A stretch of DNA of 64,000 bases from Desulfobacteraceae bacterium (GTDB lineage Bacteria; Desulfobacterota; Desulfobacteria; Desulfobacterales; ETH-SRB1): positions 8,548-72,547 of the forward strand of contig JAUVHU010000004.1 in the NCBI GenBank assembly GCA_030593145.1, given 5' to 3'. Numbering within the stretch: the first letter of the stretch is position 1; each line of letters begins with the position of its first letter. This document shows positions 1,697-57,552 of the stretch, piece after piece. The notes below the pieces were generated by a model, which was given only the letters and a program-made list of their open reading frames with translations, was not told where the DNA came from and ran no database searches. The translations under genes were made by a program, and so were the position numbers.

Positions 1697-1954
1697 GTAT
1701 TTTCCTCTGGGGCGGTTTTTGCAAACCCTTATGCATCAAGATCTCAGCACATTTCCTCGCAAAAAATCGCTCAAATTAGGTTTAAATAATTTTTATAACA
1801 GGCAGAGATGTTCTGTGGTATTATACGCTATAATATCAGAACGTTAAGCCTTTTGCCTTTGTTCTTAAGATTTAATCATGCAAAGTGTTCTGTCAAGCAA
1901 ATTATTCAAATTCTCAAATAGCTATTATAAACAGGATTGACAAATAATATTCAG

Positions 1955-1988
1955 TTCGTTAACTTTAAATATATGTCAGGTTAACGAA
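1955..1988 (+). promoter_or_regulatory. Predicted BirA operator (bioO) overlapping the birA-bioY promoter
   Basis: Perfect inverted repeat TTCGTTAAC-N16-GTTAACGAA, 36 nt upstream of the birA ATG. TTGACA at 1937-1942 lies just upstream. It resembles the known TGTTAACC-N14-16-GGTTAACA class of BirA sites. Confidence 0.6.
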
Positions 1989-2023
1989 AACAATTTATTG
2001 ATCGAGTTTATGCTGTAAAATAA

Positions 2024-2944
2024 ATGAAAGGTAAAATACTTAAAATATTAAAAGCCGAGCAGGGGGTTGTTTCAGGTGAAGCGATTAGTTCTGAGCTGGG
2101 CATTTCAAGGGTTTCTGTCTGGAAGCACCTGCAGAAGCTCCAGGAGTTTGGTTATAATATTGATGCATCACCTATGGGGTATCGGCTTATAAGCTCTCCT
2201 GATGTTCTTTTTCCCTGGGAATTTCCGGACAGAGAGAGAAAAATTCATTTTTTTCCTGAAGTTACTTCAACAATGGATATTGCCAGAGATTTTGCAAGGA
2301 AGGGTTGTCCTCATTTTACTGTAGTGGTTGCAGGGTGCCAGAACAGGGGCAGGGGGCGTTTGAAAAGGACATGGCTTTCTTCACAAGGGGGGCTATACTT
2401 TACCACTATACTCAGGCCGCAAATATCTCCTGTTTTAAGTTTAAGGGTTAATTTCGCGGCTTCCCTTATTCTTGCCCAAACTCTGAATAATATGTTTGAT
2501 ATTAATGCCAGGGTCAAATGGCCAAACGATATTCTGGTTGATGGCAGGAAGATATCAGGAATACTTTCGGAAATAGAGGCAGAGGCGGATATTGTTTCCT
2601 TTATTAATGTGGGCATTGGGATAAATATCAATAATGATCCCACAGATAGCGAACCAAAGGCGGTTTCGTTAAAGCAGTTATCAGGCAGCGAAATATCAAG
2701 GAAAAGGCTGCTTTCGGATTTCCTGGATAATTTTGAAAAATGTATTAACAGCAAGGCGCTGGATAATATAATCCAGGAATGGAAAAAATATACTGTGACC
2801 CTTAACCGGTATGTTAAAATTGTAACCCACCATGAGGTATTAGAAGGTATTGCCGTTGATTTGGATGAAAACGGCGCCTTGATATTGGAACTCGCTGATG
2901 GATCAACGAAAAAGGTTCTGTATGGTGATTGTTTCCATAAGTAG
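2024..2944 (+). CDS. birA: Bifunctional biotin-[acetyl-CoA-carboxylase] ligase / biotin operon repressor
   Basis: N-terminal HTH (ISRVSVWKHLQKLQEFGY), biotin-ligase glycine-rich loop GRGRLKRTW and KWPNDI motif; 306 aa. Confidence 0.9.
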   Translation: MKGKILKILKAEQGVVSGEAISSELGISRVSVWKHLQKLQEFGYNIDASPMGYRLISSPDVLFPWEFPDRERKIHFFPEVTSTMDIARDFARKGCPHFTVVVAGCQNRGRGRLKRTWLSSQGGLYFTTILRPQISPVLSLRVNFAASLILAQTLNNMFDINARVKWPNDILVDGRKISGILSEIEAEADIVSFINVGIGININNDPTDSEPKAVSLKQLSGSEISRKRLLSDFLDNFEKCINSKALDNIIQEWKKYTVTLNRYVKIVTHHEVLEGIAVDLDENGALILELADGSTKKVLYGDCFHK

Positions 2945-3075
2945 TGTCCATCCACAAATGGCATCTTTCGGCCCCTGGCGGCGTTCTCGCTTTTTTGTAA
3001 TCCTCGGAATAGGCGCAGGTTGCAAAAACGCTTGAGCCTTGCCAGGAACCAAAATCTACCACTTGTGGATGGACA
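2944..3075. repeat. GTGTCCATCC-type long hairpin element, copy 1
   Basis: Ends GTGTCCATCCACAAATGG / CCACTTGTGGATGGACA are inverted repeats and the interior is also self-complementary. A second copy lies at 44199-44340. It starts on the G of the birA TAG stop. Confidence 0.75.
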
Positions 3076-3099
3076 ATAAGTAAATTTGTAAGGTAAAAA

Positions 3100-3633
3100 A
3101 TGAACTCATCAACACAAATCCGCATGACCGCGTATGCCTCGCTTCTTGCAGCTTTAACAGCAGCAGGCGCGTATTTATCAATACCCATAGGTCCGGTTCC
3201 CATTGTCCTGCAGAACTTTTTCATACTTCTGACAGGTCTTTTATTGGGGAGCAGATGGGGGTTTGCAAGTGTCGCGATATATCTTCTGGCCGGAGCTTGC
3301 GGCTTTCCTGTATTCTCCGGCGGCACAGGAGGTTTTGGTCGTATTATTGGGCCTACCGGAGGATATCTTGTAGGGTATTTGCCGGCTGTATATATTATCG
3401 GAGCTATATCGGAAAAAACCGGACAGAAAGCTGTTTTTGATGTCATTGCAATGTGTTGCGGTTCAATAATCGTATATGTATTTGGTGTTGCCTGGCTTAA
3501 GGTATTAACAGGTATGTCCTGGTCTAACACACTGGCCGTGGGTATGTTTCCTTTTATTCCAGGTGATGCGCTGAAGATTGCCGCGGCTGTTCCGATTGCA
3601 AAGACCCTGCGGCCAATAATGAGGAAGTGGTAA
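3100..3633 (+). CDS. bioY: Biotin transporter S component BioY
   Basis: 177-aa polytopic membrane protein with the BioY-like segment FSGGTGGFGRIIGPTGGYLVGYL. It sits next to birA and ECF A/T genes. Confidence 0.85.
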   Translation: MNSSTQIRMTAYASLLAALTAAGAYLSIPIGPVPIVLQNFFILLTGLLLGSRWGFASVAIYLLAGACGFPVFSGGTGGFGRIIGPTGGYLVGYLPAVYIIGAISEKTGQKAVFDVIAMCCGSIIVYVFGVAWLKVLTGMSWSNTLAVGMFPFIPGDALKIAAAVPIAKTLRPIMRKW

Positions 3634-12452: not shown

Positions 12453-12517
12453 CAAAATCATATCCGCCACAAGCCTTCACTGAGTCCTTAGCGCGCGAAT
12501 TTCCCACCCCTCTAATT

Positions 12518-13432
12518 CTATTCCTTCTTGTGGCGATTTATGCTCACAACCGGGCAGCTTGAACGTATGACAACCTGTTCCAGCGTACTTCCCAGAAGCG
12601 CTTTTTCTTGATCCTGATCCGTTTCTTTCGAATGGTGCGCCATAATAATAAGATCAGCGTCTTTTCCACGGGCGAATTTTATAATCTCCATGTACGGAAT
12701 GCCTTCCAATGTCTCAATCTGGTAGTTGTCGAAGTCTTCCATTCTATTTACATAGACATCCTTTATTTTTTCTTTTACTTCTCCGAGATTTTTTTCTATT
12801 TCATTTTGACTGCGGATTGCACTACCTGCTCGGGGGCTTACATCAAGTGCGTGAAAAAGATAAAGATTGGATCCAGATGTTTTGGCTACATTGTATGCAA
12901 AGAGAAAAGCCGCGTCTGACGCTTTTGAAAAGTCGGTTCCAAAGACAATATTGCTAAATTCCAGTTTCTCTTTTGGCACAGGCCTGGTGACGATCATCAC
13001 CGGGCAGCGGGCTTTCTGAGCAACATCCTGCATAGTACTCCCAAGTGTGCTTTTGTATTTCAAACCTTCTTTTTCATCTCTTGTGTGTGGCCCCATAATG
13101 ATAAGATCTATATCCTTTTTTCTTGCAAATCTCAGAATTTCGGTATGAGGCACGCCTGCTCGGGTTTCAATTACATAATCACCAAGTTTCGTTAACTTGT
13201 CGGCATAAGTTTTTTTTATTTCTTCTTTGACCTTGTCAACATGCGCCTGGTCGCAATATTTGGCTTCTCCTGTCTTAAAGTCCGTCACAGGCCCAAAGCC
13301 TCGTGAGGGAAACCCAAAGACGTAAAATATATAGAGATTTGAATTGTGTTTTCTTGCAATCTCAAAAGCCACATCTGAGGCATCATTACATAGAGCCGAT
13401 GAAGTTGTCGCAAATAAGATATTTTTAAACAT
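12518..13432 (-). CDS. Tandem universal stress protein (two UspA domains)
   Basis: Two repeats of the Usp pattern (ILFATT.., DLIIMGPH.., GSTMQDVAQKARCPVMIV and GSTLEQVVIRSSCPVVSI). Confidence 0.85.
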   Translation of the reverse strand: MFKNILFATTSSALCNDASDVAFEIARKHNSNLYIFYVFGFPSRGFGPVTDFKTGEAKYCDQAHVDKVKEEIKKTYADKLTKLGDYVIETRAGVPHTEILRFARKKDIDLIIMGPHTRDEKEGLKYKSTLGSTMQDVAQKARCPVMIVTRPVPKEKLEFSNIVFGTDFSKASDAAFLFAYNVAKTSGSNLYLFHALDVSPRAGSAIRSQNEIEKNLGEVKEKIKDVYVNRMEDFDNYQIETLEGIPYMEIIKFARGKDADLIIMAHHSKETDQDQEKALLGSTLEQVVIRSSCPVVSINRHKKE

Positions 13433-13468
13433 AGTTATCTCCTTTCCAAGGGTAAGTGTAACCGGATA

Positions 13469-13888
13469 TTATTGATTAATTTTAATCTGACGTTCAACCA
13501 TATCGGCAAGTGTTAAGGCTTCCATCTTATTGTTTATTGAATCTTGTATTTCTTTCCATATCTCACAGGTAACACACTTCTTAGTTCGTTCACATGTCTC
13601 AGGATTATCAACACAATCTACCGGAAATATTGATCCTTCTAAAGCATCGATAATATCACGCAGGTTAATCAGGTGAGCATCTTTGCTTAGTGTATATCCT
13701 CCACCAGCTCCACGAATACTTCTGACGAGGCCCGCCAGTTTCAACAGCGGGATTAATTGCTCCATGTATTTAATAGAAATATGCTGTCTTTGAGCCAAAC
13801 TCTTCAATGAAACAGGCCCTTTTTCGTAATTTATAGCTATGTCCAGCATAGCCCTGGTGCCATAACGTGCTTTAGTTGATAACCTCAT
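13469..13888 (-). CDS. Rrf2-family transcriptional regulator
   Basis: N-terminal MRLSTKARYGTRAMLDIA winged-helix signature; C-terminal cysteines (CVDNPETC..C..C) are compatible with Fe-S binding. Confidence 0.85.
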   Translation of the reverse strand: MRLSTKARYGTRAMLDIAINYEKGPVSLKSLAQRQHISIKYMEQLIPLLKLAGLVRSIRGAGGGYTLSKDAHLINLRDIIDALEGSIFPVDCVDNPETCERTKKCVTCEIWKEIQDSINNKMEALTLADMVERQIKINQ

Positions 13889-13990
13889 TTAGATTTACTC
13901 CTTGTTGCTTTTTTTCTAAACGTAATACATTTAAAAATAGCAAGCTTCGCAGCTTCTCGTCAAGGTTAAATCTAAGGGGCAGGGGGCTTG

Positions 13991-14377
13991 TTATTTTTCC
14001 CTGGGATGACACTCACCGCATGTAAGCGGGCCTTTGCCTTCCTTTGTATGACATCCCTTGCAATTAGCGTGAAATGCTCTCATTGCGGGCAGTTTTTTGT
14101 CATGTGTTTCAAGGGTATGGCATGTGGTACAGACTGTTTCTTCAGAGTCATCCCAGACATTTTCGCCATCTTTGTATATATGATGACATTCCAGACAATC
14201 GATTTCTGCTTTATCAGTATGAAGTGCATGTGGGAAAAGAGCAGCAGGTCTCTCACGTTCTACAAAAATATCATGCTCCAGGCTTATGATGTCATCTTGA
14301 GCATATGCAACGCCAAGAATAAAAAGAGCTGCCAAACCCACTATTGCTATATATAATACTGTCTTATTTTTTTTCAT
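13991..14377 (-). CDS. Periplasmic tetraheme cytochrome c3-family protein (TmcA-like)
   Basis: Signal peptide MKKNKTVLYIAIVGLAALFILGVAYA. Four CxxCH motifs (CLECH, CTTCH, CKGCH, CGECH). A GAGG RBS precedes the ATG at 14377. Confidence 0.85.
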   Translation of the reverse strand: MKKNKTVLYIAIVGLAALFILGVAYAQDDIISLEHDIFVERERPAALFPHALHTDKAEIDCLECHHIYKDGENVWDDSEETVCTTCHTLETHDKKLPAMRAFHANCKGCHTKEGKGPLTCGECHPREK

Positions 14378-14416
14378 TCCAATTCGCCTCAATTTTTTTT
14401 ATTGCCAACACAATGG

Positions 14417-15823
14417 TTACTCTTCTTCTTTTGGTTTTATATGATCCGGTATAATCACCATATCGAGAAGAATGGGTTTCAGGAAACTCCACTTGATTCC
14501 GATCTCGTAAACTTCTTCCAGGTCTCTGATTGCATCCCAGCAATTATGGCATGCGGAAACCACAAATTTTGCTCCGGTGGCCAGAATTTGATCACGCTTG
14601 ACTTTCAGGCCTATATTTCTTTGTTCCCTATAACGTCCAATACCGTTAAGTCCGCCGCCGCCGCCGCAACAGAAATTGTGTTCACGGTTCGGGCTCATTT
14701 CACGGAAATCCTCTGCTATATATGACATGATTTTTCTTGTAACATCACACAAACCGCCATTTCTGATATAATTACACGGATCCTGAAGCGTTACAGGCTC
14801 CTTGATTTTTTTGGCTGGATCCAGCTTAAGCTTTCCTGTTTCCAGCGCTTCTAAGACCCATTCAACATAATGTATTGAAGGCGATGGTGTTTGACCGGTC
14901 TTGATCCCGGCCCAATAAGGCCCTTCTATAATTGTTGCCCGGTGTGCGTGGCCGCATTCAGTAACAACCATTCTGTTCGGTTTCAGCCTGTTCATTGCTT
15001 CATAGACCCATTCCACCTGATTCTTGCAGCCTGCCCAGTCACCGGCAAACATTGACAGACTGGTTTCTTCCCAACCCTTGCTGGGAACAGTCCAGTTTTC
15101 ACCGGCGATGTGAAACAAAATTGCTGCTTCCGCAATATCCTGTGGATAATGTTTTACTTCCCGCGCATTTATCGTATACATAATATCTGCATTAGGCTTA
15201 TCAACAGGAATGGTTAGTCCAAGATAATAGTCCTCATTTTCTTCTGCCATCCACTCACAGGTTTCAACAAAATCCGTCACAGTAACATCCATCTGAGCAT
15301 TATATATCCAGTGCATTCCTGATCCGATTTTCATTTCATGAGGCACAAAACCCTGAGAAAAACATACACCTCTCAGGTAGCCGAACATGACCCCCATATC
15401 AATGCCATGAGGGCAGTACATTCCGCAGCGATTGCAGCAGGTGCACTTTCCCCATGCCGTATCCATGCAATTTATCATGAAATCAGTATCTACATCCCCT
15501 TTTCTTTTTACCAATTCACCAAGTGTGGATTGTATTTTATAAGAGGGAATCTGCTTTGGATCATTATCATTTGCGAGATAAAAGAAACAGGTATCAGCGC
15601 ACAAACTGCAATGAGCGCAAATCTCAAGCCAAGTGCGAATACGGGATTTGCAGGTAGTAGCCAGATTTTTTTTCAAAGCTTCTTTATCAACAGGAAATGT
15701 TTTCATGTCCTCGTAATACCGAATTCCTTTGTCTGCCAATAAGAGATCGAGTTCCTCTTTGGTCTTTACAGGTTTTCTTGTAACAAGAGGTGGTAGATCC
15801 TGGTTTTTTGCTTCTTGTGCCAT
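14417..15823 (-). CDS. HdrD/DsrK/TmcB-like iron-sulfur oxidoreductase with CCG domains
   Basis: Two 4Fe-4S motifs ([23 protein letters not shown]) and the C-terminal CCG signature FCCGGGGG; 468 aa. Confidence 0.85.
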
Positions 15824-15875
15824 ATTTATCTCTCCAGTATGAAATTATTATTAATAATTCGTTATAAAACCACCA

Positions 15876-16559
15876 TTACCAAGCAATTCCCCTGCCTTTT
15901 GCGCCGCCTCTCTTTATCCCGTAATCCATTCCAATCTGAATTCTGGAACAAAAGGAAAGAACGAAATGCGAAAGTTTTGTAAAAGGAATGGCTATCAGCA
16001 TAATTTCGCCGCAGAGGATATGTATAATTAACCAGGTTTTGTATCCTGCCCCCAATTCTAATTGATGATAGGCAATATAGCCTGTGATAAAAGGCGCTAT
16101 TGCAATAGCCAGAACAATATAATCCGATGCAGTTGTTAAAATCCTGACATTGGGGTCAACCAGACGACGAATTAAAAAGAAGATTCCTGCGGCAATTACT
16201 ACTAAGGTCATATAGTCTGTTAGCTTATCAGGTATGGTAATCCAGCTTATGTTCCACGATTCTTCTATCAGCACGACATGAGCGAGTAGAAAAATCGGAG
16301 CCGCGACAAGGCATATATGGAAGAGATAAGTTACGGCCATAAATATCGGATGCTTTGCGGTTGTGCGATTGAGTGGTAACAGCCAATAAAAAAGAGATTT
16401 TACAGCTCCCTTAATCCCGTCGCCAAGCTTTTCGGTATAGGCCACTCTATCGAGCCGCCAGTCAAGACCTTTTACATACCAAACGATTCTGGCGATAATT
16501 CCGACAAAAAAGACAGCAAATGAAATTAAGGCCAATGGTCCACTTACAAATTCATACAT
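15876..16559 (-). CDS. NarI/DsrM/TmcC-like membrane cytochrome b subunit
   Basis: Multi-TM protein with conserved His residues. A GGAGG RBS 5 nt before the ATG at 16559 favours MYEFVSG as the start over the GTG at 16598. Confidence 0.75.
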   Translation of the reverse strand: MYEFVSGPLALISFAVFFVGIIARIVWYVKGLDWRLDRVAYTEKLGDGIKGAVKSLFYWLLPLNRTTAKHPIFMAVTYLFHICLVAAPIFLLAHVVLIEESWNISWITIPDKLTDYMTLVVIAAGIFFLIRRLVDPNVRILTTASDYIVLAIAIAPFITGYIAYHQLELGAGYKTWLIIHILCGEIMLIAIPFTKLSHFVLSFCSRIQIGMDYGIKRGGAKGRGIAW

Positions 16560-16590
16560 AGTTCCCTCCCCAATAAAAAAACGTAATAGC

Positions 16591-16632
16591 TCAGCCACAA
16601 AGCCACTAAGACACCAAGATTATAATATAATG
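16591..16632. repeat. CAGCCAC/ATTATAATCTTGGTG-family repeat (inverted copy)
   Basis: TCAGCCACAAAGCCACTAAGACACCAAGATTATAATATAATG is the reverse complement of the motif found at 51338-51373 and 54188-54232. Confidence 0.7.
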
Positions 16633-16842
16633 CTTAATGTACAGTATATGCCGTATCTGCAACTTTTTTCTCTTTTTGATAACGCTTTCATAAAAAACCT
16701 ACTTATTACATAGGAATACTTATTATTTGATAATAAAGGGCTTTGTCAAGCAAATTTTCATTTATTCATCATTCAGGAAAACCCTAATTTTGCACAAAGT
16801 TGCAAAGAAAATTTATGCGTTTTTGCGCGAACTTTTTTTTGA

Positions 16843-18954: not shown

Positions 18955-19048
18955 AAAGCTATGTTATGCCGCTTCACGGCGCTGTAAGCGAAAACAACTT
19001 GTCAATCATAGCATGATGGTATGGTCGTAAGATCAAGGAACAAATTAA

Positions 19049-19183
19049 AAGATGAACGTCGAACATCGAACATTGAACGTTGAACATCGAATAATGAAAT
19101 CGCTCCGCTCCGTCAGTTTATAAATTGGTAGAATACCTTATTCAAAATTCGACGTTGGACGTTCGATGTTCGATGTTCATCTT
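19049..19183. repeat. GAACGTCGAACATCGAAC palindromic element, copy 1
   Basis: Arms AAGATGAACGTCGAACATCGAACATTGAACGTTGAACATCGAATAATG / ATTCGACGTTGGACGTTCGATGTTCGATGTTCATCTT. A near-identical copy lies at 57381-57552. Confidence 0.85.
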
Positions 19184-19434
19184 TTTAGTTATTTGAAAGT
19201 TCCATCTACTGCGTTGTAGTGTTTTTTCAGACACTCGGCATACTACACGTATGGCCTCGTTCCTGAAAAATTACTACGCCTTGTATATGAACCTTTTTAC
19301 TTAGCCATCAATTCAAAATTGTTCGGTTCACTTTAGTTTTGTTTTAACTTTTTTTATATTTCGTGCCTTCCTAATTTCGTGTTTTAGTGATTGTTTTTTT
19401 TGCTAAGAAACTTAAATGTTACAATTAATTTAAT

Positions 19435-21246: not shown

Positions 21247-21296
21247 GTAACTATTCGGCCACAGATTCACACAGATGAACGCGGATAGGTTTAACT
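21247..21296. repeat. CAGCCAC-family repeat (GTAACTATTCGGCCACAGATTCACACAGATGAACGCGGATAGGTTTAA)
   Basis: Nearly identical to 51260-51308. It begins immediately after the ClC stop codon. Confidence 0.8.
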
Positions 21297-21332
21297 ATAA
21301 GTAATTGTTCACGGTTCAGAAGTTCAAGGTTA

Positions 21333-21390
21333 AACTATTTTCCAGATATATACTCCTATATCATGGGAAAAATTTACATTTATTAACACT
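21333..21390 (+). repeat. 58-nt direct repeat, left copy, flanking the R-M cassette
   Basis: AACTATTTTCCAGATATATACTCCTATATCATGGGAAAAATTTACATTTATTAACACT matches 23621-23679 with one indel and one mismatch. Confidence 0.9.
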
Positions 21391-21427
21391 GTTGGCTATA
21401 TAAAACATCATCACTGATAAGGACGCT

Positions 21428-22192
21428 ATGAACGAGGAAACAAAGAAAAAAATCGAATTAATTATCAAAAAAGTTCCATCACTTACAGATGGTCAATTAT
21501 TTTGGCTAAATAAAGTGTTGAAAGTCTTTGACTGTTATTACAAATTCGAAATACGCCAGTCTGACTTATTCGACAAACATGCTTTTGAGGACTTTGGAGA
21601 TGCGCTCCGCATACATCATAGTTTTTCAGTTGAGCCATTCTCAAAAGACAAATTTGAATATGTACTTGAACAAACATTAAACATTAAGAAAAAAATAGCA
21701 AAACTCGCCAACAAAGGGAACCGAGGCCATGATATATCAATAAATGGTATTCCTGTTTCCCTTAAAACTCAGGCAGACAAAAATATCAAAAAGGATAAAA
21801 TCTGGATAAGTAAGTTTATGGAATTGGGTAAAGGTGGTTGGGGCGATAATCCCAATGATTTATATGAGTTGAGAAATATGTTTTTAGATCATATGAAGAA
21901 CTATGAAAGAATTTTATCTTTAAGGGCGTTAACAAAAGCCCCGAAATGGAAATATGAATTGGTCGAGATCCCAAAGAAATTATTACAGTCTGCGGTTAAT
22001 GGTGAGCTAGAAATGAAATTGGGGAGCAAACAATTCCCTAAACCTGGATATTGTTATGTCAGAGACGAAAACGGTGAGCAGATGTATCAGCTTTATTTTG
22101 ATGGAGGAAGTGAGAGAAAACTGCAAATTAAAAATTTATTAAAAAAATATTGTGTGGTTCATGCTACTTGGGAGTTTGAGATACCGAACTGA
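21428..22192 (+). CDS. Candidate type II restriction endonuclease
   Basis: 254-aa ORF convergent with the adjacent MTase gene and overlapping it by 29 nt. Possible PD-(D/E)xK-like core (GHDISINGIPVSLKTQ). The assignment rests on context. Confidence 0.55.
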   Translation: MNEETKKKIELIIKKVPSLTDGQLFWLNKVLKVFDCYYKFEIRQSDLFDKHAFEDFGDALRIHHSFSVEPFSKDKFEYVLEQTLNIKKKIAKLANKGNRGHDISINGIPVSLKTQADKNIKKDKIWISKFMELGKGGWGDNPNDLYELRNMFLDHMKNYERILSLRALTKAPKWKYELVEIPKKLLQSAVNGELEMKLGSKQFPKPGYCYVRDENGEQMYQLYFDGGSERKLQIKNLLKKYCVVHATWEFEIPN

Positions 22193-23078
22193 AGATATTT
22201 CTTTGAACAGAAGCAGTTCTTTTTCTTGCTATATCAATATATTCATCTTTGATTTCTATGCCAACGCATCTTCTGCTGAACTCTTTAGCAACAATACCAA
22301 CTGTGCCTGCGCCGTAAAACGGATCAAAAACGAGGTTGTTTACTTTCGTTCCAGCAAGCATGCATGGTCTAACGAGTGCTCTAGGAAAAACAGCGAAATG
22401 TGCTTCTGGGCAGGGTTCAGTATTTATTGACCAGACTGTTCTTTTGTTTTTCTTGCCGTTGCCATTTTTCGTATGTTCTTTGATAGCCTTTTGATCAAAA
22501 TAATATCTTTCAGACTTTGTGAACAAAAACAAATACTCATGAGAGACAGTAAGCCTGTCTCTCACACTTTCAGGCTGGCAATTAGGTTTATACCAAATTA
22601 TATCATTTCTAAGGTACCACCCCTCTCGTTGGCATGCCATCGCAAGCATCCATGCAACTCCAATAAGGTCTTTCTTTTTTAAGCCTGGAGGAGTAGGTGG
22701 TCTATAAGACATGGCGCGCCCTTTATTTTTTGAATCTTCTTGTCGCCATTTTCTTCCGCCAGAAGTGTATGTGTTGCCAATATTCAACCAAAAGGTACCA
22801 TCTGGTTTAAGTGTTCTTCTAAGTTCTGAAAAAATTGAAACTAAGTCGGAAATATAGTCTTCTAAATTTGGCTCAGCCCCAATTTGATTTTTGACGCCAT
22901 AATCTCTAACACCCCAATATGGAGGCGATGTTATGGCGCACTGAAAAGTATTATCAGGGATTGTTTTAATCATTTCACGGACATCGCCAGCAATTACCAA
23001 AATTGGCTCGTCCGCAGGGGGCGCACGAAATGGTTCTTGAAGGGTGTCGTTATGTAATAAATTGCTTTCAAGATTCAT
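22164..23078 (-). CDS. Beta-class amino-DNA methyltransferase (N4-cytosine or N6-adenine)
   Basis: Motif IV SPPYWG lies upstream of motif I DPFYGAGTVG, which is the beta permutation. SPPY favours N4-cytosine enzymes. Confidence 0.85.
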   Translation of the reverse strand: MNLESNLLHNDTLQEPFRAPPADEPILVIAGDVREMIKTIPDNTFQCAITSPPYWGVRDYGVKNQIGAEPNLEDYISDLVSIFSELRRTLKPDGTFWLNIGNTYTSGGRKWRQEDSKNKGRAMSYRPPTPPGLKKKDLIGVAWMLAMACQREGWYLRNDIIWYKPNCQPESVRDRLTVSHEYLFLFTKSERYYFDQKAIKEHTKNGNGKKNKRTVWSINTEPCPEAHFAVFPRALVRPCMLAGTKVNNLVFDPFYGAGTVGIVAKEFSRRCVGIEIKDEYIDIARKRTASVQRNIFSSVSQTPK

Positions 23079-23098
23079 AAAAATATAATGCCATAATC

Positions 23099-23305
23099 CT
23101 AACGCAAGCGCAAGTTATTTTTTGGTGGTCTCCCGCGTTTTTTCTTTCCCTGTTTTAAGAATCTAGCTAATTCGGCATGGGAAATAAAGTGATCCCTGCC
23201 CATTTTTTGGGATTGAAGCCTTTTTCCAAGGATTAGCTGTCTGATTCTGGAGGCAGTAACCCCCATGAATTGCGCTGCTTCTTCTGTTGTGTAAAAGTTT
23301 TCCAT
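23099..23305 (-). CDS. Small helix-turn-helix DNA-binding protein (excisionase/MerR-like HTH_17 type); possible regulator of the MTase
   Basis: 68 aa; YTTEEAAQFMGVTASRIRQLI HTH and a basic tail KKKRGRPPK. Its stop lies 20 nt upstream of the MTase start. Confidence 0.7.
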   Translation of the reverse strand: MENFYTTEEAAQFMGVTASRIRQLILGKRLQSQKMGRDHFISHAELARFLKQGKKKRGRPPKNNLRLR

Positions 23306-23620
23306 GCATTAAAAATAAACGAAATCACACAAAATAACAACATAATTTAATGGGTGACACCTTATTTTGTTATAAAACTTTAGATACCGCAATATCCAGG
23401 AATAGTAAGACTGCTTGCTCTTGTAAGCATAATGATAATATCGTAAAACTTTGCGAACTTGATCCATTAAACGATATTCCTGATTCGGTTTAAGATTTTA
23501 TCTTGCTTTCCATATCTCTACTATATTATGTTGTTAAATCGAAAGGTTAACAACATATAAAAGAGTTGAAAATTCAAGAGAAATATTCATCATAATTTAA
23601 ATTAATATACGAATACGTGG

Positions 23621-23679
23621 AACTATTTTCCAGATATATACTCCTAATATCATGGGAAAAATTTTCATTTATTAACACT
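23621..23679 (+). repeat. 58/59-nt direct repeat, right copy, flanking the R-M cassette
   Basis: See 21333-21390. It lies just upstream of the T5orf172-like gene. Confidence 0.9.
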
Positions 23680-23703
23680 CTTAGGTACCAAAATCGGAGC
23701 GAT

Positions 23704-24420
23704 ATGAATACTCAAAACACCTTATACATTGCTGAGCCAATATTTTCTGAGAAATTGCAGAAGTTCGATTCGGATACTTCGTTCCCTCCGATAAAGAAGA
23801 TTGGAATTACGACAGGCCACCCGGAAAGAAGGGAGCGTGAACTCCTCGGTACTATAAGTCCTGTGAAGGTTTCAATCGTCAGAGCATGGACGGAAATTGA
23901 TGCAAGAAAAGTAGAGTCAATGTTGCATACAATTCTCGACAACATCAGATTGGATGGGGAATACTTCTGGGATGGCAATGAAACGCTTGTAGATGCAGTG
24001 ACTGATTTTATTCAGTCCTATCACCCAGAAGCAAAAGAAGTAGTAGTGACCGATGATTCTGATGTGGTTGCTGCTACCGAAGCTGTCCAGAAGAAGAACT
24101 CCCAAAGAATCTACACAGAAGTTGTGCCTAAGTTAGAATCATTGTCAATTCAGCATAACATTACAAAAAATGGTAAGGGCGTTCGATTCAGGCTTGGTGA
24201 TTATTCACTAGCTCTAAGCGGAAAAACAGGTGGTAGATACACTCTCACGATTTGGTCGAAAACAAAGACTACTGATCAAGCTCTAGCAGATTTCCCTAAT
24301 TCACAAGAACTCTCAGCCAATAGCACTGAAGATAGTAATCGTCGCGCCAGGATACCAATGAGTGAGCTTGAAACAATTATGCGGTCAATAACGCACTATG
24401 TAGAGAATCAGAGTGCCTAA
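23704..24420 (+). CDS. T5orf172 / MUG113 (GIY-YIG-like) domain protein with an unassigned C-terminal half
   Basis: KKIGITTGHPERRERELLGT ... VESMLHTILDNIRLDGEYFW matches the T5orf172 pattern. A GGAG RBS lies before the ATG at 23704, and the upstream extension to 23617 runs through the repeat. Confidence 0.65.
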   Translation: MNTQNTLYIAEPIFSEKLQKFDSDTSFPPIKKIGITTGHPERRERELLGTISPVKVSIVRAWTEIDARKVESMLHTILDNIRLDGEYFWDGNETLVDAVTDFIQSYHPEAKEVVVTDDSDVVAATEAVQKKNSQRIYTEVVPKLESLSIQHNITKNGKGVRFRLGDYSLALSGKTGGRYTLTIWSKTKTTDQALADFPNSQELSANSTEDSNRRARIPMSELETIMRSITHYVENQSA

Positions 24421-24473
24421 CAAGGCGCTACCTTAAGGCAGAAAGGGGCTTTCCTTACTTTAGCAACTTCGGT

Positions 24474-24635
24474 GTGCACTTCCGGGACGCCCTTGCAATT
24501 ATACGGGGAATAGAACGTAGAAAGATATTCAGAGACAACCAGGACCGGAGCAATTTTCTTGAACGGCTCAGTAAGCTGGTACCTGAAACAAACACGTTCT
24601 GCTGGGCACTCTATGAGGACAAAAAGAGCCTCTAG
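24474..24635 (+). pseudogene. Remnant of a Y1 (IS200/RAYT-like) transposase gene
   Basis: Translates to ..AIIRGIERRKIFRDNQDRSNFLERLSKLVPETNTFCWAL.. and then stops, which resembles the N-terminal third of REP-associated/IS200-like Y1 proteins. It has no start codon and no catalytic part. Confidence 0.5.
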
Positions 24636-24752
24636 AACTAAGACAGGAGGTGTCGGTCAATTTGAATAAGCGATTTTGTTTGGCTATTGGTAGTGCTTTT
24701 TGGGGGTTACGTAAACGTTGACTATGTAAAGAGCGAGACTAATAAGGAGGGA

Positions 24753-25232
24753 ATGATGACTATGATTCTTACTTCTACAGCATTTACGCATAATGGGGAA
24801 ATTCCGAGTTTATATACATGCGATGGGCGGGATATCTCACCACCGCTTGCTTGGAAAGATGTGCCCGACGGGGCGAAGAGCATAGTCTTGATTGTAGACG
24901 ATCCAGATGCACCAGACCCTAAAGCGCCGAAGATGACATGGGTGCACTGGGTGCTTTACAATATTCCTCCCAATATTAACAACCTTCAACAGGCCGTAAA
25001 GTCTAGCGACCTTCCTTCTGGTACTTTGGAGGGCCTGAATGACTGGAAACGTACCGGCTATGGTGGCTTTTGCCCCCCAATCGGTCGGCACCGATACTTC
25101 CACAAACTTTATGCGCTCGATGAAGTACTTCCTGACATGGGAACTCCGACGAAGGCAAAGATAGAGGCGGCGATAGCGGGACACATTATTGCCACAGCAG
25201 AGCTTGTTGGGACCTATGAGCGAACTAAATAG
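24753..25232 (+). CDS. PEBP family protein (YbhB/YbcL-like)
   Basis: CDGRDISPPLAW, DDPDAPDP, WVHWVLYNIP, GYGGFCPPIGRHRYFHKLYALD. AAGGAGG RBS upstream; the exact ATG (24753, 24756 or 24762) is uncertain. Confidence 0.85.
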   Translation: MMTMILTSTAFTHNGEIPSLYTCDGRDISPPLAWKDVPDGAKSIVLIVDDPDAPDPKAPKMTWVHWVLYNIPPNINNLQQAVKSSDLPSGTLEGLNDWKRTGYGGFCPPIGRHRYFHKLYALDEVLPDMGTPTKAKIEAAIAGHIIATAELVGTYERTK

Positions 25233-25443
25233 GCACGAGATTTACGAAAAAAGACCGGTGCTTAACAACTCAATTCAGGCGATGGGAAGGGGCTCGGGGT
25301 ATTGCAGGGGTACCTTCGGGACGTTCGTTAGGCTTGGGTCAAATCTTGAATTGTGAATTAATATTTGACAATTAAGCTACTGTCATTTGGACGGATAAGG
25401 CAATCGGATATGAAGTTAGAAGATAAGATATCGGGAGAAAAAC

Positions 25444-27810
25444 ATGACAAGAAAAGAAGCAAGTAAGCTTATTATCTTCATGACTATTGTTTTTCTAACA
25501 ATGGGTTGCTCCGTTAAGAATATAATCGTGGAAGACATAACGTTACGTGAAAATCAGCAATATGCTCCGATAATGGATCGTGACTCACAGGAAAGACTGT
25601 TGTCGAAAATCTTTGATTTGCTGAAAAGAAACGAAAATATGGAAATTGAATTATTCACGTCTGACCCAAAGAATAGAACTCCCAAAAGAAAGGGTATAAG
25701 ATATTATGTTCAAGGGGGTCCCATGCCTGCATGGGTGAAGCAGAAGTCTATTAAATTTACCGATGTATTATATATTGATCGCGAAAACCTGGAAATAAAA
25801 TTCAAACTATTAGACAAAGGGACCTATCTTGGGATTCCGCTCATTATGGCCAAAGCCAACGGTGTGTTATCCATAAAGGGTTCTAACAGGATTGAATTAA
25901 CTTACAAGACCTTTGGAACCTGGATGATTGTAGGCACATCTGTCTGGAAGACCGAATGGCTGATCGATTATATAGACCTGGATAATAATATCATAGGGGC
26001 CTATTATGCAATTTTCGGAGGTGGGCCATTGTGCGGGGGAGGCGGTAAAGGTTATCTTCTTGCAAAATTCACAGAAGAACCCCAGGTGGTCCATGAAAAG
26101 GAAAAGATCAAACCTTCACTTGTACTTGCGAAACCGCTACTGCCGCCGGTAACTTCAAAACCTCCTGAAAAAGTCGCTGTTGCGCAAACAAAAGAAAGGA
26201 TCGAACTAGCTCCAGTCATTGTTGAACCGGAAAAACCGCTGCTGCCAATCCTTTCAACCCATGTCCTTTTAAGGGATGCATCCGGCAACCAGGTACTTGA
26301 TGGCGGTGAGGAAGTCACCTTAAAAGTGGAAGTCGAAAACAGGGGTGAAGGTGCGGCAAGAGATGTTCAGGTTGTCCTGTCAGGCAATCAGAGCCTTATC
26401 AACTGCCTGGGTGAAGATAGATTCCTTGGGAACATCAAGGCGGGAGAAAAGAAGACAGCAGAATTTAAGGCCGTGCTCCCTTCAGTTATTGTCCGGGAAA
26501 CAGCGGAACTAAGAATAGAGATCAAAGAAATGACCGGCGCTACTCATGAAAGAAAAAAAATAAAGGTTGCCATGAGGCCGTCAGAGGTAAAAGAGACAGT
26601 TGAAATCATATCGGAGCTTCCATACCTTGTTTTTACCACGCAACTGAAAGAGCGAAACAACAACCGGGTTCTTGATGGTGGCGAGGAGGTCACCTTAAAG
26701 GTGAAAGTCGAAAACAGGGGTGAAGGTGCGGCAAGAGATGTTCAGGTTGCTCTGTCAGGTAATCAGAGCCTTATCAACTGCCTGGGTGAAGATAGATTTC
26801 TTGGGGACATCAAGGCAGGAGAAAAGAAAATAGCAACATTTAAGGCTGTTTTGCCGGCCAATATTCCATCAGTAACAGCAAGACTTAAAATAGAGATAAA
26901 AGAAAGCAAGGGGTTCTCGTCTCTTGAGATAAAGGTTTTGAGGATAGCCATGAGGCCGGTGGAGGTGAAAGAAGTAGTAGAGATCATCTCCGAAGTGAAT
27001 GTGGATGACATCCCCAAAAAGATAAAGGGTTTTGAGAACAAAGATAATGTGGCTCTTATAATCGGCATCAGTGATTACCGGGAAAAGCTCATTCCTACCG
27101 TTAAATACGCTGCAAGAGATGCCGAAATCGTGGCGAAGTACCTTGAGAAATTGGGTGGTATTCCCCGATCCAATATCAAATTATTGACGGATAACACAGC
27201 AACAAAGAGCGACATTGAGGCCTACGCAGAAGACTGGCTTCCGAGACGGGTAAATCAAAATTCAACCGTCTTTATTTATTATGCAGGTCATGGCACTCCG
27301 GATCCGCAAGGTAGAGAAGCCTACATTGTTCCTTATGAGGGTCATCCCGACTTTCCGTCTAAGCTCTATCCGCTAAAGAAGATGTATGAATCGCTTAATA
27401 AACTTCCCGCAAAAGACGTGATCGTCATGCTTGATAGTTGTTTTTCAGGTGCAAAAGGCAGAAGTATTACGCGTGAGGGAGCAAGACCGATTACTATATC
27501 CATCGAGAATCCAGTGCTGTCCGGTGGCAAGATCACGGTTATTGCGGGATCGACAGGGAATCAAATAAGTTCTGATTATGAGAAGGCTCAGCACGGACTA
27601 TTTACATACTACCTCTTAAGGGGAATAAGGGGAGAGGCGGATACAAACATGAACGATGTGGTAGAACTTGGGGAACTCTATCGCTATGTTAGGACAAATG
27701 TATCAGAGAAGGCCTCATTAGAGCTTAACAGGGACCAAACCCCTGTCTTACTTCCTTCCGAAGTCAGTGCAGGTAGCAGGCTAAACATACCGATGTCCAG
27801 GACCAGGTGA
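25444..27810 (+). CDS. Lipoprotein with two tandem Ig-like (CARDB-like) domains and a C-terminal caspase-like peptidase C14 domain
   Basis: Lipobox LTMGC. Duplicated 125-aa module. C-terminal domain with His in YYAGHG and Cys in DSCFSGA, the catalytic dyad pattern of the caspase/orthocaspase fold. Confidence 0.8.
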   Translation: MTRKEASKLIIFMTIVFLTMGCSVKNIIVEDITLRENQQYAPIMDRDSQERLLSKIFDLLKRNENMEIELFTSDPKNRTPKRKGIRYYVQGGPMPAWVKQKSIKFTDVLYIDRENLEIKFKLLDKGTYLGIPLIMAKANGVLSIKGSNRIELTYKTFGTWMIVGTSVWKTEWLIDYIDLDNNIIGAYYAIFGGGPLCGGGGKGYLLAKFTEEPQVVHEKEKIKPSLVLAKPLLPPVTSKPPEKVAVAQTKERIELAPVIVEPEKPLLPILSTHVLLRDASGNQVLDGGEEVTLKVEVENRGEGAARDVQVVLSGNQSLINCLGEDRFLGNIKAGEKKTAEFKAVLPSVIVRETAELRIEIKEMTGATHERKKIKVAMRPSEVKETVEIISELPYLVFTTQLKERNNNRVLDGGEEVTLKVKVENRGEGAARDVQVALSGNQSLINCLGEDRFLGDIKAGEKKIATFKAVLPANIPSVTARLKIEIKESKGFSSLEIKVLRIAMRPVEVKEVVEIISEVNVDDIPKKIKGFENKDNVALIIGISDYREKLIPTVKYAARDAEIVAKYLEKLGGIPRSNIKLLTDNTATKSDIEAYAEDWLPRRVNQNSTVFIYYAGHGTPDPQGREAYIVPYEGHPDFPSKLYPLKKMYESLNKLPAKDVIVMLDSCFSGAKGRSITREGARPITISIENPVLSGGKITVIAGSTGNQISSDYEKAQHGLFTYYLLRGIRGEADTNMNDVVELGELYRYVRTNVSEKASLELNRDQTPVLLPSEVSAGSRLNIPMSRTR
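26266..27015 (+). repeat. Intragenic tandem duplication (2 x 375 nt) within the caspase lipoprotein gene
   Basis: CTTGATGG at 26296 and again at 26671. About 160-nt cores are nearly identical (GGTGAAGGTGCGGCAAGAGATGTTCAGGTTG...). The distal parts are more diverged. Confidence 0.9.
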
Positions 27811-27878
27811 AATACTTTTATCTTTCAAATTCACGGGTCTAGCGGGACGCCCATGCAATGATACTTGTCGTCCGTCTT

Positions 27879-30015: not shown

Positions 30016-30178
30016 AGTTTAGATCATACGAAGTGGGAATGCAAATACCATTTAACTTGGATTCCGAAATGTCGTAAAACAACAGCTTTTCGGGACACTT
30101 TCGGTACGTCCATTTGTAAATCAGTTGACATGTAATTATACGGGGAATAGAACGTAAAAAGATATTCAGAGACAGCCA
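30016..30178 (+). mobile_element. Degenerate IS200/IS605-type Y1 transposase remnant
   Basis: 30022-30078 translates to DHTKWECKYHLTWIPKCRK, the IS200 TnpA N-terminal signature. It is followed by stops and by a frame-shifted HVIIRGIERKKIFRD segment that duplicates 24498-24538. Confidence 0.6.
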
Positions 30179-30226
30179 ATCCGGCGTGGTTTATAATGTG
30201 AATAAAGGGAAAAGGATAGCCAAAGA

Positions 30227-30884: not shown

Positions 30885-31679
30885 TTACTTGAGATGTATA
30901 AGAGTTCCTGACTCATTTTGAGTTGCAACGCTAATCCTGCTGTTGCGATTTGTCAGCGCCTGTCCAATAACATTTAAGGCTTTTTCAGGTGTATTGTTTG
31001 TTTCGCTCATGTGCGCCAGAATTATGTGTTTAAGCCCGTCATGCTGTACTTCATGTAAAAGATTTTTTGCTTCTTCGTTGGAAAGATGACCTGTTCTGTC
31101 TTTGACGCGTTGTTTTAAAGGCCATGGATAAGGACCGTTTTGAAGCATATCAGGATCGTGATTAGCTTCAAGAATTAATAACGCACAGTCTTTAAGATGT
31201 TCTTTAACCATAGCTGTTGCTATTCCAAGATCTGTTGCTATCCCTATCTTTGTATTGTTCAGGCATATCGTAAAGCCTGACGGGTCTTCTGCATCATGGG
31301 ATATGGAGAAGGGGTGTATTTTTAAATTGTTAATAGAAAAGGATGAACCTGTTTCGAAGTTCACAATATTTTGAATGTTTCCGATATATGATGAGGCGGC
31401 TTTGGTAGTTTTGGGGTTGATATAAACGGGCAGATTAAAACGTCGGGAAAGGATTCCAACGCCCTGGATATGGTCGTTATGTTCATGTGATACAAGGATG
31501 GCATCCAGATCTTCAGGGCAAAGTCCCTTTGATTCCATCCTGCGTTCAATTTCTATTCCTGAAAGGCCGGCGTCAACAAGTATAGATGTTAAGCCGTCCG
31601 AAATATATATAGCGTTGCCCTTGCTGCCGCTTGCCAGCATACATATTGAAAGGTTATGGTTTTTGTCCGGCATAGACAC
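30885..31679 (-). CDS. MBL-fold metallo-hydrolase (YycJ-like)
   Basis: SHEHNDH metal-binding motif; SGSKGNA N-terminus. Confidence 0.8.
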   Translation of the reverse strand: MSMPDKNHNLSICMLASGSKGNAIYISDGLTSILVDAGLSGIEIERRMESKGLCPEDLDAILVSHEHNDHIQGVGILSRRFNLPVYINPKTTKAASSYIGNIQNIVNFETGSSFSINNLKIHPFSISHDAEDPSGFTICLNNTKIGIATDLGIATAMVKEHLKDCALLILEANHDPDMLQNGPYPWPLKQRVKDRTGHLSNEEAKNLLHEVQHDGLKHIILAHMSETNNTPEKALNVIGQALTNRNSRISVATQNESGTLIHLK

Positions 31680-51259: not shown

Positions 51260-51427
51260 GTAACTATTCAGCCACAGATTCACACAGATGAACGCAGATA
51301 GGTTTAAATACAAAGAAATCACATAACATTAAGAATTATTATAATCTTGGTGACTTAGTGGCTGAATTATTACAATAAAAGAAAAATATCAGTGATGATC
51401 AGCGTAGATCTGCGGCTGAATAATTAC
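51260..51427. repeat. CAGCCAC-family composite palindrome downstream of clpB
   Basis: GTAACTATTCAGCCACAGATTCACACAGATGAACGCAGAT pairs imperfectly with ATCAGTGATGATCAGCGTAGATCTGCGGCTGAATAATTAC. The internal ATTATAATCTTGGTGACTTAGTGGCTGAA is shared with 54188 and 16591 (reverse complement). Confidence 0.8.
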
Positions 51428-56235: not shown

Positions 56236-56427
56236 TGTTCAGACCTTGTAAATCTTTGTTAATTAAGAAGTGCTTTATTGGACAACAAACTCTGATTCCA
56301 TTTTAGTAGTTACGGTTCAAAGGTTCAAGGTTCAGAGGTTCAAAGGTTGACAGATTCATGATGCTTACCCAGTTATGAATAAAGGGCTTGAAGACCCATT
56401 AAAAATCATTTTTAACGAGGTATGTAG

Positions 56428-57380: not shown

Positions 57381-57552
57381 AAGATGAACGTCCAACATCG
57401 AACATTGAACATCGAACGTCGAATAATGATGTCGCTCCGCTCCTCAAATTATTCCAATATCTTTTCCCATTCAACCACGCCAAGGCGTGGTTCGATATTC
57501 ATCTTTTCCCATTCAATATTCGATGTTGGACGTTCGATGTTCGATGTTCATT
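57381..57552. repeat. GAACGTCGAACATCGAAC palindromic element, copy 2, with an internal insertion
   Basis: Its arms are nearly identical to 19049-19183. The extra internal segment contains the direct repeat ATCTTTTCCCATTCAA x2 and the hairpin CCACGCCAAGGCGTGG. Confidence 0.85.

Follow-up and report, generated by a model that had tools for sequence, protein, structure and literature searches.

Restriction-modification (R-M) units flanked by long direct duplications of their target have reportedly been found by the Kobayashi group in genome comparisons of Helicobacter and Neisseria. Long repeats around an R-M unit that has no recombinase suggest autonomous mobility of the unit. The subject of this study is a type II R-M system of such appearance, located in a 64-kb stretch of DNA (64,000 nucleotides, nt; hereafter the window) from a Desulfobacteraceae bacterium, where it lies between two direct repeats, DR1 and DR2. 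A preliminary description of the locus had taken these repeats for a target site of 58 bp that was duplicated when the R-M unit inserted itself. The analysis reported here led to a different conclusion, which we consider very probable: a sedentary chromosomal integron has decayed here, the locus represents its head, and the R-M system is an attI-cassette-attI unit in which the cassette recombination site, attC, was replaced by a piece of the integron platform. Ordinary integron biology would then account for the arrangement.

Several described systems are relevant to this locus. The SmaI system of Serratia marcescens, with the site CCCGGG, is composed of R.SmaI, the N4-cytosine methyltransferase M.SmaI and C.SmaI. 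M.SsoII, M.EcoRII and M.MspI are methyltransferases with an N-terminal helix-turn-helix (HTH) domain that repress their own promoters.

Cassettes of the delta-attI or attI-ORF-attI type (ORF, open reading frame) have been catalogued among mobile integrons of classes 1 and 2 (Partridge et al. 2009, cited in Gonzales Machuca et al. 2026, PMC12901181). In the catalogued cases, as much as 238 nt of sequence leftward from the crossover is retained (in an attI2 segment of 244 nt), and in one case a complete attI1 is present on both sides (PMC12901181). Type II R-M systems are common among the defence systems carried by integron cassettes (Darracq et al., bioRxiv 10.1101/2024.07.02.601686).

Identification of the direct repeats as attI

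Alignment of DR1 (21333-21390, plus strand) and DR2 (23621-23679, plus strand) confirmed that the two copies differ by one indel and one mismatch. An exact block of 26 nt (21333-21358 and 23621-23646) was followed by the 1-nt indel and by a second block of 32 nt, which contained the mismatch and reached 21389 and 23678. Each half of the repeat was present in exactly two copies in the window when up to three mismatches were allowed, and shuffled sequences were expected to contain none. Rfam and tRNA scans gave no match at the locus, which ruled out a tRNA-derived att site as the origin of the repeat.

The 26-mer was scanned for exact matches in JGI metagenomes, and four contigs, designated L083-L086, were found. 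In L083 and L085, the 26-mer was located approximately 108 nt upstream of a divergent intact gene encoding a protein of 330 amino acids (aa), and the L083 protein matched the NCBIfam model TIGR02249, 'integron integrase', with 415 bits (cutoff 265). In L086, the integrase gene was interrupted by an insertion sequence, and L084 started within the spacer between the integrase gene, intI, and attI. The repeat was also present beside intI in contig L094, whose IntI was 87% identical to that of L083. Thus, attI-like sequence lies beside intI in these contigs, with cassettes joined to it at a G↓TT crossover (the arrow marks the crossover point).

The position of the crossover was established from an alignment of DR1, DR2, L083 (identical to L084 and L086 over this stretch), L085 and L094. 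All five rows were conserved up to ...AYACTG↓TT, and five unrelated sequences were found beyond this point. The first cassette of L085 started with TTCTGCC, contained a RelE/HTH toxin-antitoxin pair and was closed by a 62-nt hairpin site beginning with GCAGAAC, which is the inverse of the start of this cassette; the bottom strand of this site folded with z = -4.0. Because the start of the L085 cassette mirrors its own folding attC, the crossover position could be fixed at G↓TT. In the window, the crossover G of DR1 is at 21391, and TT is at 21392-21393. Because the repeat is colinear with the sequence beside intI in the relatives and because the conservation ends at ACTG↓TT, it was shown, at the level of sequence, that the 58-nt repeat is an attI extending from inside the integrase-binding region to the crossover. 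Both attI copies of the window end in genuine cassette junctions.

The two copies are not equivalent. A remnant of intI adjoins DR2, which therefore occupies the native position, and DR1, which ends at the crossover with no intI adjoining it, is the extra copy. DR1 was 91.5% identical to the intI-adjoining attI block of L083-L086. At all five positions that differ from L083-L086, DR1 and DR2 were the same, and the copies were separated only by three changes private to DR2, i.e., an extra A, TTTACA changed to TTTTCA, and G changed to C at the crossover position, 23680; DR1 had none of these three. This pattern of sharing points to a probable intragenomic duplication within this lineage.

Insertion sequences and group II introns are frequent in integron arrays. 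Both were observed among the relatives: an IS1-like element at positions 1023-1755 of L086 truncates the integrase at codon 72, and a group II intron reverse transcriptase is encoded after the first cassette of L084 (positions 1160-3156). These two cases show repeated decay and invasion of this integron family.

Replacement of attC by a piece of the integron platform

The sequence to the left of DR2 was found to belong to the platform of the integron. Nucleotide alignment to the intI genes of L083, L085 and L086 revealed that the window is colinear with them, on the minus strand, between the start codon (23513) and codon 53 (23351). The 52-aa ORF at 23309-23467 on the minus strand matched Pfam Phage_int_SAM_4 (E 1.7e-6), and a tblastn search with intI gave 72% identity over residues 8-53. 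A 1-nt insertion leads to a stop at codon 8. No match to the remainder of intI was found by tblastn elsewhere in the 64-kb window. The IntI-specific additional domain falls in the missing part of the gene, and only the frameshifted codons 1-53 (23351-23513) remain. The intI of the window was shown to be a pseudogene. A search of the protein database revealed no IntI nearly identical to this remnant. The remnant is followed by the spacer between intI and attI (23514-23620), which is colinear with that of L083-L086.

The preliminary description had stated that exactly three genes were enclosed by the repeats and that no integrase gene was among them. The three genes, encoding an endonuclease (R), a methyltransferase (M) and a small HTH protein, are indeed present as described, and no intact integrase gene lies inside, but the 53-codon intI remnant (23513-23351) must be added to the enclosed genes. 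The R-M-HTH module ends with ...ACATAATT at 23347; TAA and then intI codon 53, read backwards, follow, and the further order is truncated intI, spacer and second attI copy. Therefore, 273 nt of integron platform, made up of the intI 5' end and the spacer, intervene between the R-M module and DR2, and a 332-bp block (23348-23679) stands where the attC of the cassette should be. An attC replaced by attI-derived sequence, with the next cassette joined at the crossover, is the arrangement of delta-attI-type cassettes.

Promoter-like sites were found on the minus strand of this block at 23553-23525 and 23632-23604. A palindrome with 9-nt arms (TGTTGTTAA-N9-TTAACAACA) at 23528-23554 lies over the Pint-like promoter match and is absent from the spacer of the L083 type; it may be due to chance or may serve as an operator, to which the HTH protein would perhaps bind. 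A 15-nt inverted repeat (TAACAACATAATTTA at 23335-23349 and TATATTATGTTGTTA at 23522-23536) brackets the intI remnant.

The R-M-HTH module as a travelling integron cassette

The contigs that encode the closest homologues of R (L087, L088, L090, L091/L092, L095 and L096) were compared with the window. The module itself spans 1,957 bp (21391-23347, plus strand) and starts with the cassette core G↓TTGGCT. In L087, L088 and L090, it was present at approximately 98% nucleotide identity, from window position 21391 (21389 for L088) to 23347, or, in L087, to the contig end. The match to L091 and L092 (78% nucleotide identity) also stopped at 23347, and the match to L096 (82%) covered 21418-23347. In the window, these limits correspond on the left to the G↓TT that follows DR1 and on the right to the point where the intI remnant is joined.

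In L087, L088 and L090, the module was directly preceded by the attC of another cassette, in which a strong hairpin and an R'' matching RYYYAAC were recognized; these sites ended with ...G↓TTCGCC or G↓TTCGTC, and the one in L087 folded with z = -3.4. After the module, an element of 83-86 nt was found in L090 and L091, with GGCCAAC at its start, GGTTGCAC at its end and a divergent centre. GGCCAAC is the inverse of the cassette start GTTGGCC, and this element fits a putative attC of the module. Because copies with approximately 98% identity share exact ends and sit after the attC sites of other cassettes, R-M-HTH was shown, as judged from the comparison of contigs, to be a three-gene integron cassette that recently moved between arrays. 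Together with the downstream T5orf172 cassette described below, L087, L088 and L090 provide the attC-bounded gene cassettes that characterize an integron. A cassette neighbouring the module in L087 contains a TIR-domain defence-like pair.

The mobility of the R-M unit, which had been suspected earlier, was thus borne out by near-identical copies in at least three other genomic contexts; the proposed mode of mobility was not. Insertion of the R-M unit into a 58-bp target with duplication of this target, as in Helicobacter, would explain why long direct repeats bracket the unit with no intact recombinase inside, and the unit is AT-richer than its surroundings, as had been judged by eye, though modestly: its GC content was 37.2% versus 41.4% for the window, which placed it at the 3rd percentile among sliding windows of the same size. 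However, the repeat is an integron attI, the right-hand copy lies 273 nt away from the module, and intI and the spacer belong with the repeat. Moreover, the left junction is a canonical integron G↓TT crossover, and the module at approximately 98% identity occurs elsewhere without the repeats, after the attC of another cassette. We therefore regard target duplication as extremely improbable. The R-M unit is a known kind of unusual cassette architecture and not a new mode of R-M mobility.

It was also considered that the repeats could be the attL and attR of a small decayed island with a phage-type tyrosine integrase, an excisionase-like HTH protein and a 58-bp att site. An integrase fragment and an HTH protein of the excisionase family (TIGR01764) do lie between the repeats, and att sites typically have direct repeats 40-60 nt in length. 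Nevertheless, the integrase fragment is orthologous to integron integrases and not to those of islands, and the HTH gene travels with the R-M module to places where there is no integrase; its product matches the N-terminal part of a methyltransferase profile. In addition, the repeat is single in the other contigs, where it stands beside intI and is followed by unrelated cassettes, and the observed junctions are of the cassette type, at G↓TT. On these grounds, an island origin has almost no credibility.

The module ended with ...AACA[T/A]AATT at the identical nucleotide in five lineages (window 23347/23348, L088 3295, L090 2980, L091 9920 and L096 3672). Beyond this end, the DNA was attC-like (GGCCAAC...) in L090 and L091, unrelated in L088 and in L096, and truncated intI followed by attI in the window. 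A shared end with four different continuations hints that attC was repeatedly lost or exchanged at its foot. A single ancestral loss of attC common to the window and L088 was considered and rejected, since the patterns of single-nucleotide polymorphisms revealed no special relationship between the two.

Formation and persistence of the attI pair

We infer that a duplication of the platform in this lineage gave rise to the architecture. The R-M cassette joined attI at the canonical G↓TT crossover. Two routes could have led to the present structure. In the first, a circle containing R-M-HTH, truncated intI, the spacer and attI would have formed, e.g., by joining of the attC foot to a site in intI, and attI x attI recombination would then have inserted this circle before the T5orf172 cassette. 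In the second, the segment from intI codon 53 to the end of R-M-HTH would have been duplicated in tandem, the base of the attC hairpin being the point of junction, and IntI would then have cut out the second R-M copy through attI x attC recombination. In both routes, the left-hand intI and spacer would have been deleted later. Both routes fit the data. A hypothetical deletion leaving a single attI would produce a junction reading ...CAAGGTTA-AACTATTTTCC...ACT[G/C]TTAGGTACC, and in a hypothetical circle, the left part of DR2 would be joined to TTGGCTATATAAAAC.

Several observations weigh against the interpretation of the locus as an integron head with an attI-cassette-attI unit. The right junction, ...ACATAATT followed by TAATGGGTG, is no G↓TT site, and therefore at least one step was not catalysed by the integrase. 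The DNA to the left of DR1 is a host intergenic repeat without intI, so that every formation route needs an extra deletion. The window contains no intact intI, and no integrase of this exact lineage was found; the specificity of the integrase for this attI was deduced from relatives whose identity to the remnant is 72-85%. The putative attC of the module in L090 and L091 showed no fold into a simple hairpin. Only one further attC-like site was found downstream, its fold was not significant, and the array is short and degenerate. Finally, neither an empty site nor an excised circle was recovered, the genome scan anchored on the neighbouring ClC gene having given no empty site.

Some of these observations would also be expected if the locus were a dead fossil. 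It is possible, though on the unlikely side, that the intI 5' end, attI and R-M were duplicated in tandem by a template switch at the attC hairpin during replication, that later deletions shaped the locus, and that the two attI sites never served, and are unable to serve, as a pair for cassette recombination. The right junction, which is not an integrase site, agrees with such a course of events, as do the dead intI and the G to C change at the crossover of DR2; the module end at the same nucleotide in the window, L088, L090, L091 and L096 suggests a fragile or modular boundary. Against it, at least three events would be needed, and both attI copies end in canonical cassette junctions, which means that the integrase once acted at both. 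Furthermore, published attI-ORF-attI constructs are recombination-proficient, such activity having been published for IntI1 constructs only (PMC12901181).

At the other extreme, the unit could be a live mobile cassette of an attI type, whose single-stranded attC was swapped for a double-stranded attI and which is moved by attI x attI recombination through an IntI acting in trans; R-M addiction would retain it in a structure that otherwise excises itself. Separately, the module end shared by five lineages with four continuations could mark a specific detachment or exchange of attC mediated by the integrase or by a hairpin nuclease. We consider these proposals improbable; if true, a specific reaction of attC detachment or exchange would bear on how cassettes acquire their recombination sites.

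With the decayed integron as the preferred interpretation, it must be asked how an attI pair could persist. Loss of type II R-M systems is counter-selected by post-segregational killing. The structure could have been frozen by three factors, i.e., the dead local integrase, the mutated crossover base of DR2 (G to C) and the addictive R-M cargo, and together they plausibly did freeze the attI pair, their combination suggesting how the structure survived. In an experimental system, attI1-aadB-attI1 was excised by IntI1 at about 100%, and the authors gave this as the reason for the rarity of such structures (PMC12901181).

Genes of the R-M-HTH cassette

The cassette encodes a type II R-M system, i.e., an endonuclease of the SmaI family and a DNA methyltransferase. 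R (254 aa, 21428-22192, plus strand), the first gene after attI, matched the Pfam SmaI family (PF17411) with E 2.9e-81 and 273 bits and the PADLOC profile REase_II with E 5e-109. It had 2,368 homologues at E <= 1e-10, and a search of the PDB with R gave no solved relative. M (304 aa, 22164-23078, minus strand) is a beta-class N4/N6 methyltransferase with an SPPY motif; it matched PF01555 (N6_N4_Mtase) with E 5.8e-52 and the PADLOC profile MTase_II, PDLC03252, with E 3.6e-159, and its relatives in the PDB include N4-cytosine methyltransferases and CcrM. Hence, the preliminary assignment of the two genes to a candidate endonuclease and a beta-class SPPY methyltransferase held good. The window contained three CCCGGG sites versus 4-8 expected, a comparison that is uninformative on the specificity of R and M.

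The 3' ends of the convergent R and M genes overlap by 29 nt (22164-22192). This overlap, which had been noticed earlier, is real and was found to be conserved: it was the same in L087, L088, L090, L091 and L096, i.e., in every homologous copy in which both genes were called. Control by antisense or convergent transcription could operate through it.

The third gene encodes a small HTH_17 protein of the excisionase/MerR-like type (68 aa, 23099-23305, minus strand; PF12728, E 4.4e-8; TIGR01764) with an AT-hook-like tail. It lies 20 nt upstream of M on the same strand, and its product is probably a controller of the M operon. It was conserved beside M in L088, L090, L095 and L096. In the PADLOC profile PDLC03252, the HTH protein matched positions 1-63 and M matched positions 91-359. 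Because the two match successive parts of one methyltransferase profile, the HTH protein is the detached counterpart of the N-terminal regulatory domain of fused methyltransferases. HTH and M are separate ORFs in different frames, and this split was kept in L088 and L090 (approximately 98% identity) and in L096 (82%). A role as an Xre-type C protein controlling R was rejected for the small protein, since it is of the HTH_17/excisionase type and precedes M rather than R; its score against HTH_3 was only E 0.054.

No promoter of its own is obvious for R, whose start lies 37 nt beyond the crossover. The promoter matches across attI and the beginning of the cassette are only weak, and in other arrays R is located directly after an attC. 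Expression of R probably depends on read-through from the platform or the array. The HTH-M operon has 43 nt of cassette DNA upstream of it and, in the window, also lies downstream of the old intI promoter region; presumably, it has its own promoter at the right end of the cassette. A promoter-less R next to attI, combined with a self-promoted HTH-M at the other end, would allow M to be produced before R after capture of the cassette.

Downstream cassettes and genome context

The mutated crossover base of DR2 (C, 23680) is followed by TTAGGTACC... and by a cassette (23681-24421, plus strand) that starts with TTAGGT and carries a GIY-YIG/T5orf172 gene (ORF 23704-24420; Pfam MUG113/T5orf172). The cassette ends with the inverse core GCCTAAC (24415-24421), and the rest of its attC is disrupted. 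Homologues of the T5orf172 protein with 70-92% amino acid identity were found in many phyla, including members of the Gammaproteobacteria (Microbulbifer, Reinekea and Ketobacter), Marinimicrobia and Desulfobacteraceae. In L093, the same cassette starts with G↓TTAGGC after another attC and ends with GCCTAAC. These boundaries and this distribution show that the T5orf172 gene is a widespread integron cassette. Its protein gave a weak match to the PADLOC candidate PDC-S57.

Fragments that cover the N-terminus of a transposase of the IS200-like (Y1) type, together with the sequence upstream of it (…AATTATACGGGGAATAGAACGTARAAAGATATTCAGAGACA), were found at 24474-24635, 27845-27866 and 30135-30180, and the first of them interrupts the attC of the T5orf172 cassette.

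The whole window was scanned for attC sites under strict conditions (RYYYAAC/GTTRRRY with pairing). A relaxed scan was dropped because it returned mostly noise and unrelated palindromic repeats. Inside the variable region defined below, the only strict match was a 74-nt site, GCTTAAC...GTTAGGC (25260-25333, plus strand), located just after a gene of the PEBP family (24687-25232); folding of its bottom strand was not significant. Tentatively, this site may be the end of a further cassette of the same degenerate array. Just after it, a 788-aa protein (25444-27810) is encoded, with two CARDB-like repeats, a C-terminal caspase domain (Peptidase_C14) and a PADLOC 'caspase' match. This gene may serve in defence, and it is larger than is usual for a cassette.

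On the left side, a 48-nt dispersed repeat (GTAACTATTCGGCCACAGATTCACACAGATGAACGCGGATAGGTTTAA) is located directly after the stop codon of ClC (21247-21294); it is also present at 51260-51307 and in Eth-SRB1 (L054 4427-4474). It is followed at 21311-21331 by a tandem motif of the GGTTCA type, which occurs again at approximately 56312-56350. A potential attC to the left of DR1 (GTTTAAC...GTTAAAC, 21288-21335) was judged to be a chance occurrence: it is only 48 nt long, pairs weakly, lies partly in the dispersed repeat, and is AT-rich and near-palindromic.

The ClC protein was scanned against 185,579 species-representative genomes. The synteny of the aminotransferase gene and ClC was kept in most of the 80 loci obtained, and R, M, HTH or T5orf172 was found downstream of ClC in none of the 80. 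The closest species-representative genome was Eth-SRB1, with 90% protein identity for ClC and 92% for the upstream aminotransferase. In this genome, ClC is followed after approximately 17-50 nt by the homologue of window positions 30885-31679, and the 9.6 kb between 21247 and 30873 are absent. Because Eth-SRB1 lacks this whole stretch, it was defined as a variable region. It contains the integron remnant, the T5orf172 cassette, the IS200-like fragment, the PEBP gene, the caspase/CARDB gene, nifS/nifU-like genes and a methyltransferase gene; only its first part looks integron-derived.

Look-ups of exact matches to the ClC, R, M and T5orf172 proteins returned only one Logan contig of 3.2 kb, identical to the window. 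This contig, L001 (SRR18936876), corresponds to 21337-24526, with its left end 4 nt inside DR1 and its right end in the transposase fragment. DR1 and DR2 have no 31-mer in common, and therefore the break at DR1 may stem from a population variant or from another attI-bearing locus in the sample.

Two further features lie outside the variable region. A segment of approximately 4.4 kb (12455-16834) is absent from the syntenic Eth-SRB1 contig, where position 7741 of L054 is followed by the match to window position 16834. Near-perfect palindromic elements of approximately 130-150 nt, with heptamer-like units GAACATC/GAACGTC, were found at 19039-19193, between the aminotransferase gene and ClC, and at 57390-57552. 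Both fold very stably, and they look like members of a dispersed intergenic repeat family of this genome.

Comparison with known systems

The R-M unit resembles R-M units of Helicobacter and Neisseria in being flanked by direct repeats some tens of bases in length and in lacking its own recombinase. It differs from them in that the repeat is a pre-existing attI accompanied by a partial integrase gene and not a duplicated anonymous target.

Similarity to the SmaI system is found in the membership of R in the Pfam SmaI family, in the beta-class N4/N6 methyltransferase with SPPY and in the presence of a small HTH protein. In contrast to the SmaI system, this protein is of the HTH_17/excisionase type and is encoded before M, instead of being an Xre-type C protein encoded before R, and R and M are convergent with a 29-nt overlap. 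As regards enzymes of the M.SsoII type, the HTH protein is equivalent to their N-terminal regulatory domain in a detached form. M.SsoII, M.EcoRII and M.MspI are C5-methyltransferases; unlike their regulatory domains, the HTH protein of the window has an ORF to itself, which is located 20 nt upstream of M and in another frame.

As in the defence cassettes of sedentary chromosomal integrons, a compact type II R-M system is carried as a cassette, and the neighbouring genes are also defence-like (the TIR protein in L087 and the GIY-YIG/PDC-S57 and caspase proteins in the window). The cassettes described by Darracq et al. are canonical, end with attC and belong to large arrays of the Vibrio type with an active IntI, whereas the array of the window is short and degenerate and its cassette ends with attI.

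The closest likeness in structure is to delta-attI cassettes, in which attC is likewise replaced by attI-derived sequence ending at G↓TT, with attI (or attC) on the left and a piece of attI on the right. So far, attI-cassette-attI and delta-attI structures have been catalogued in clinical integrons of classes 1 and 2; the window adds an example that is chromosomal, carries a defence system and comes from a sulfate-reducing member of the Desulfobacteraceae. Its integron, unlike those of class 1 and class 2, is environmental, sedentary and decayed. The attI-derived block is longer than in the delta-attI cases, 332 bp, and takes in intI codons 1-53; three R-M genes instead of a resistance gene make up the cargo; and the left attI has no adjoining intI. 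The cassette-side junction also differs, being located just before R'' with none of R'' kept. Because the junction keeps no R'', the crossover between the L box and R'' that was proposed for delta-attI1-11 fails to explain the unit of the window.

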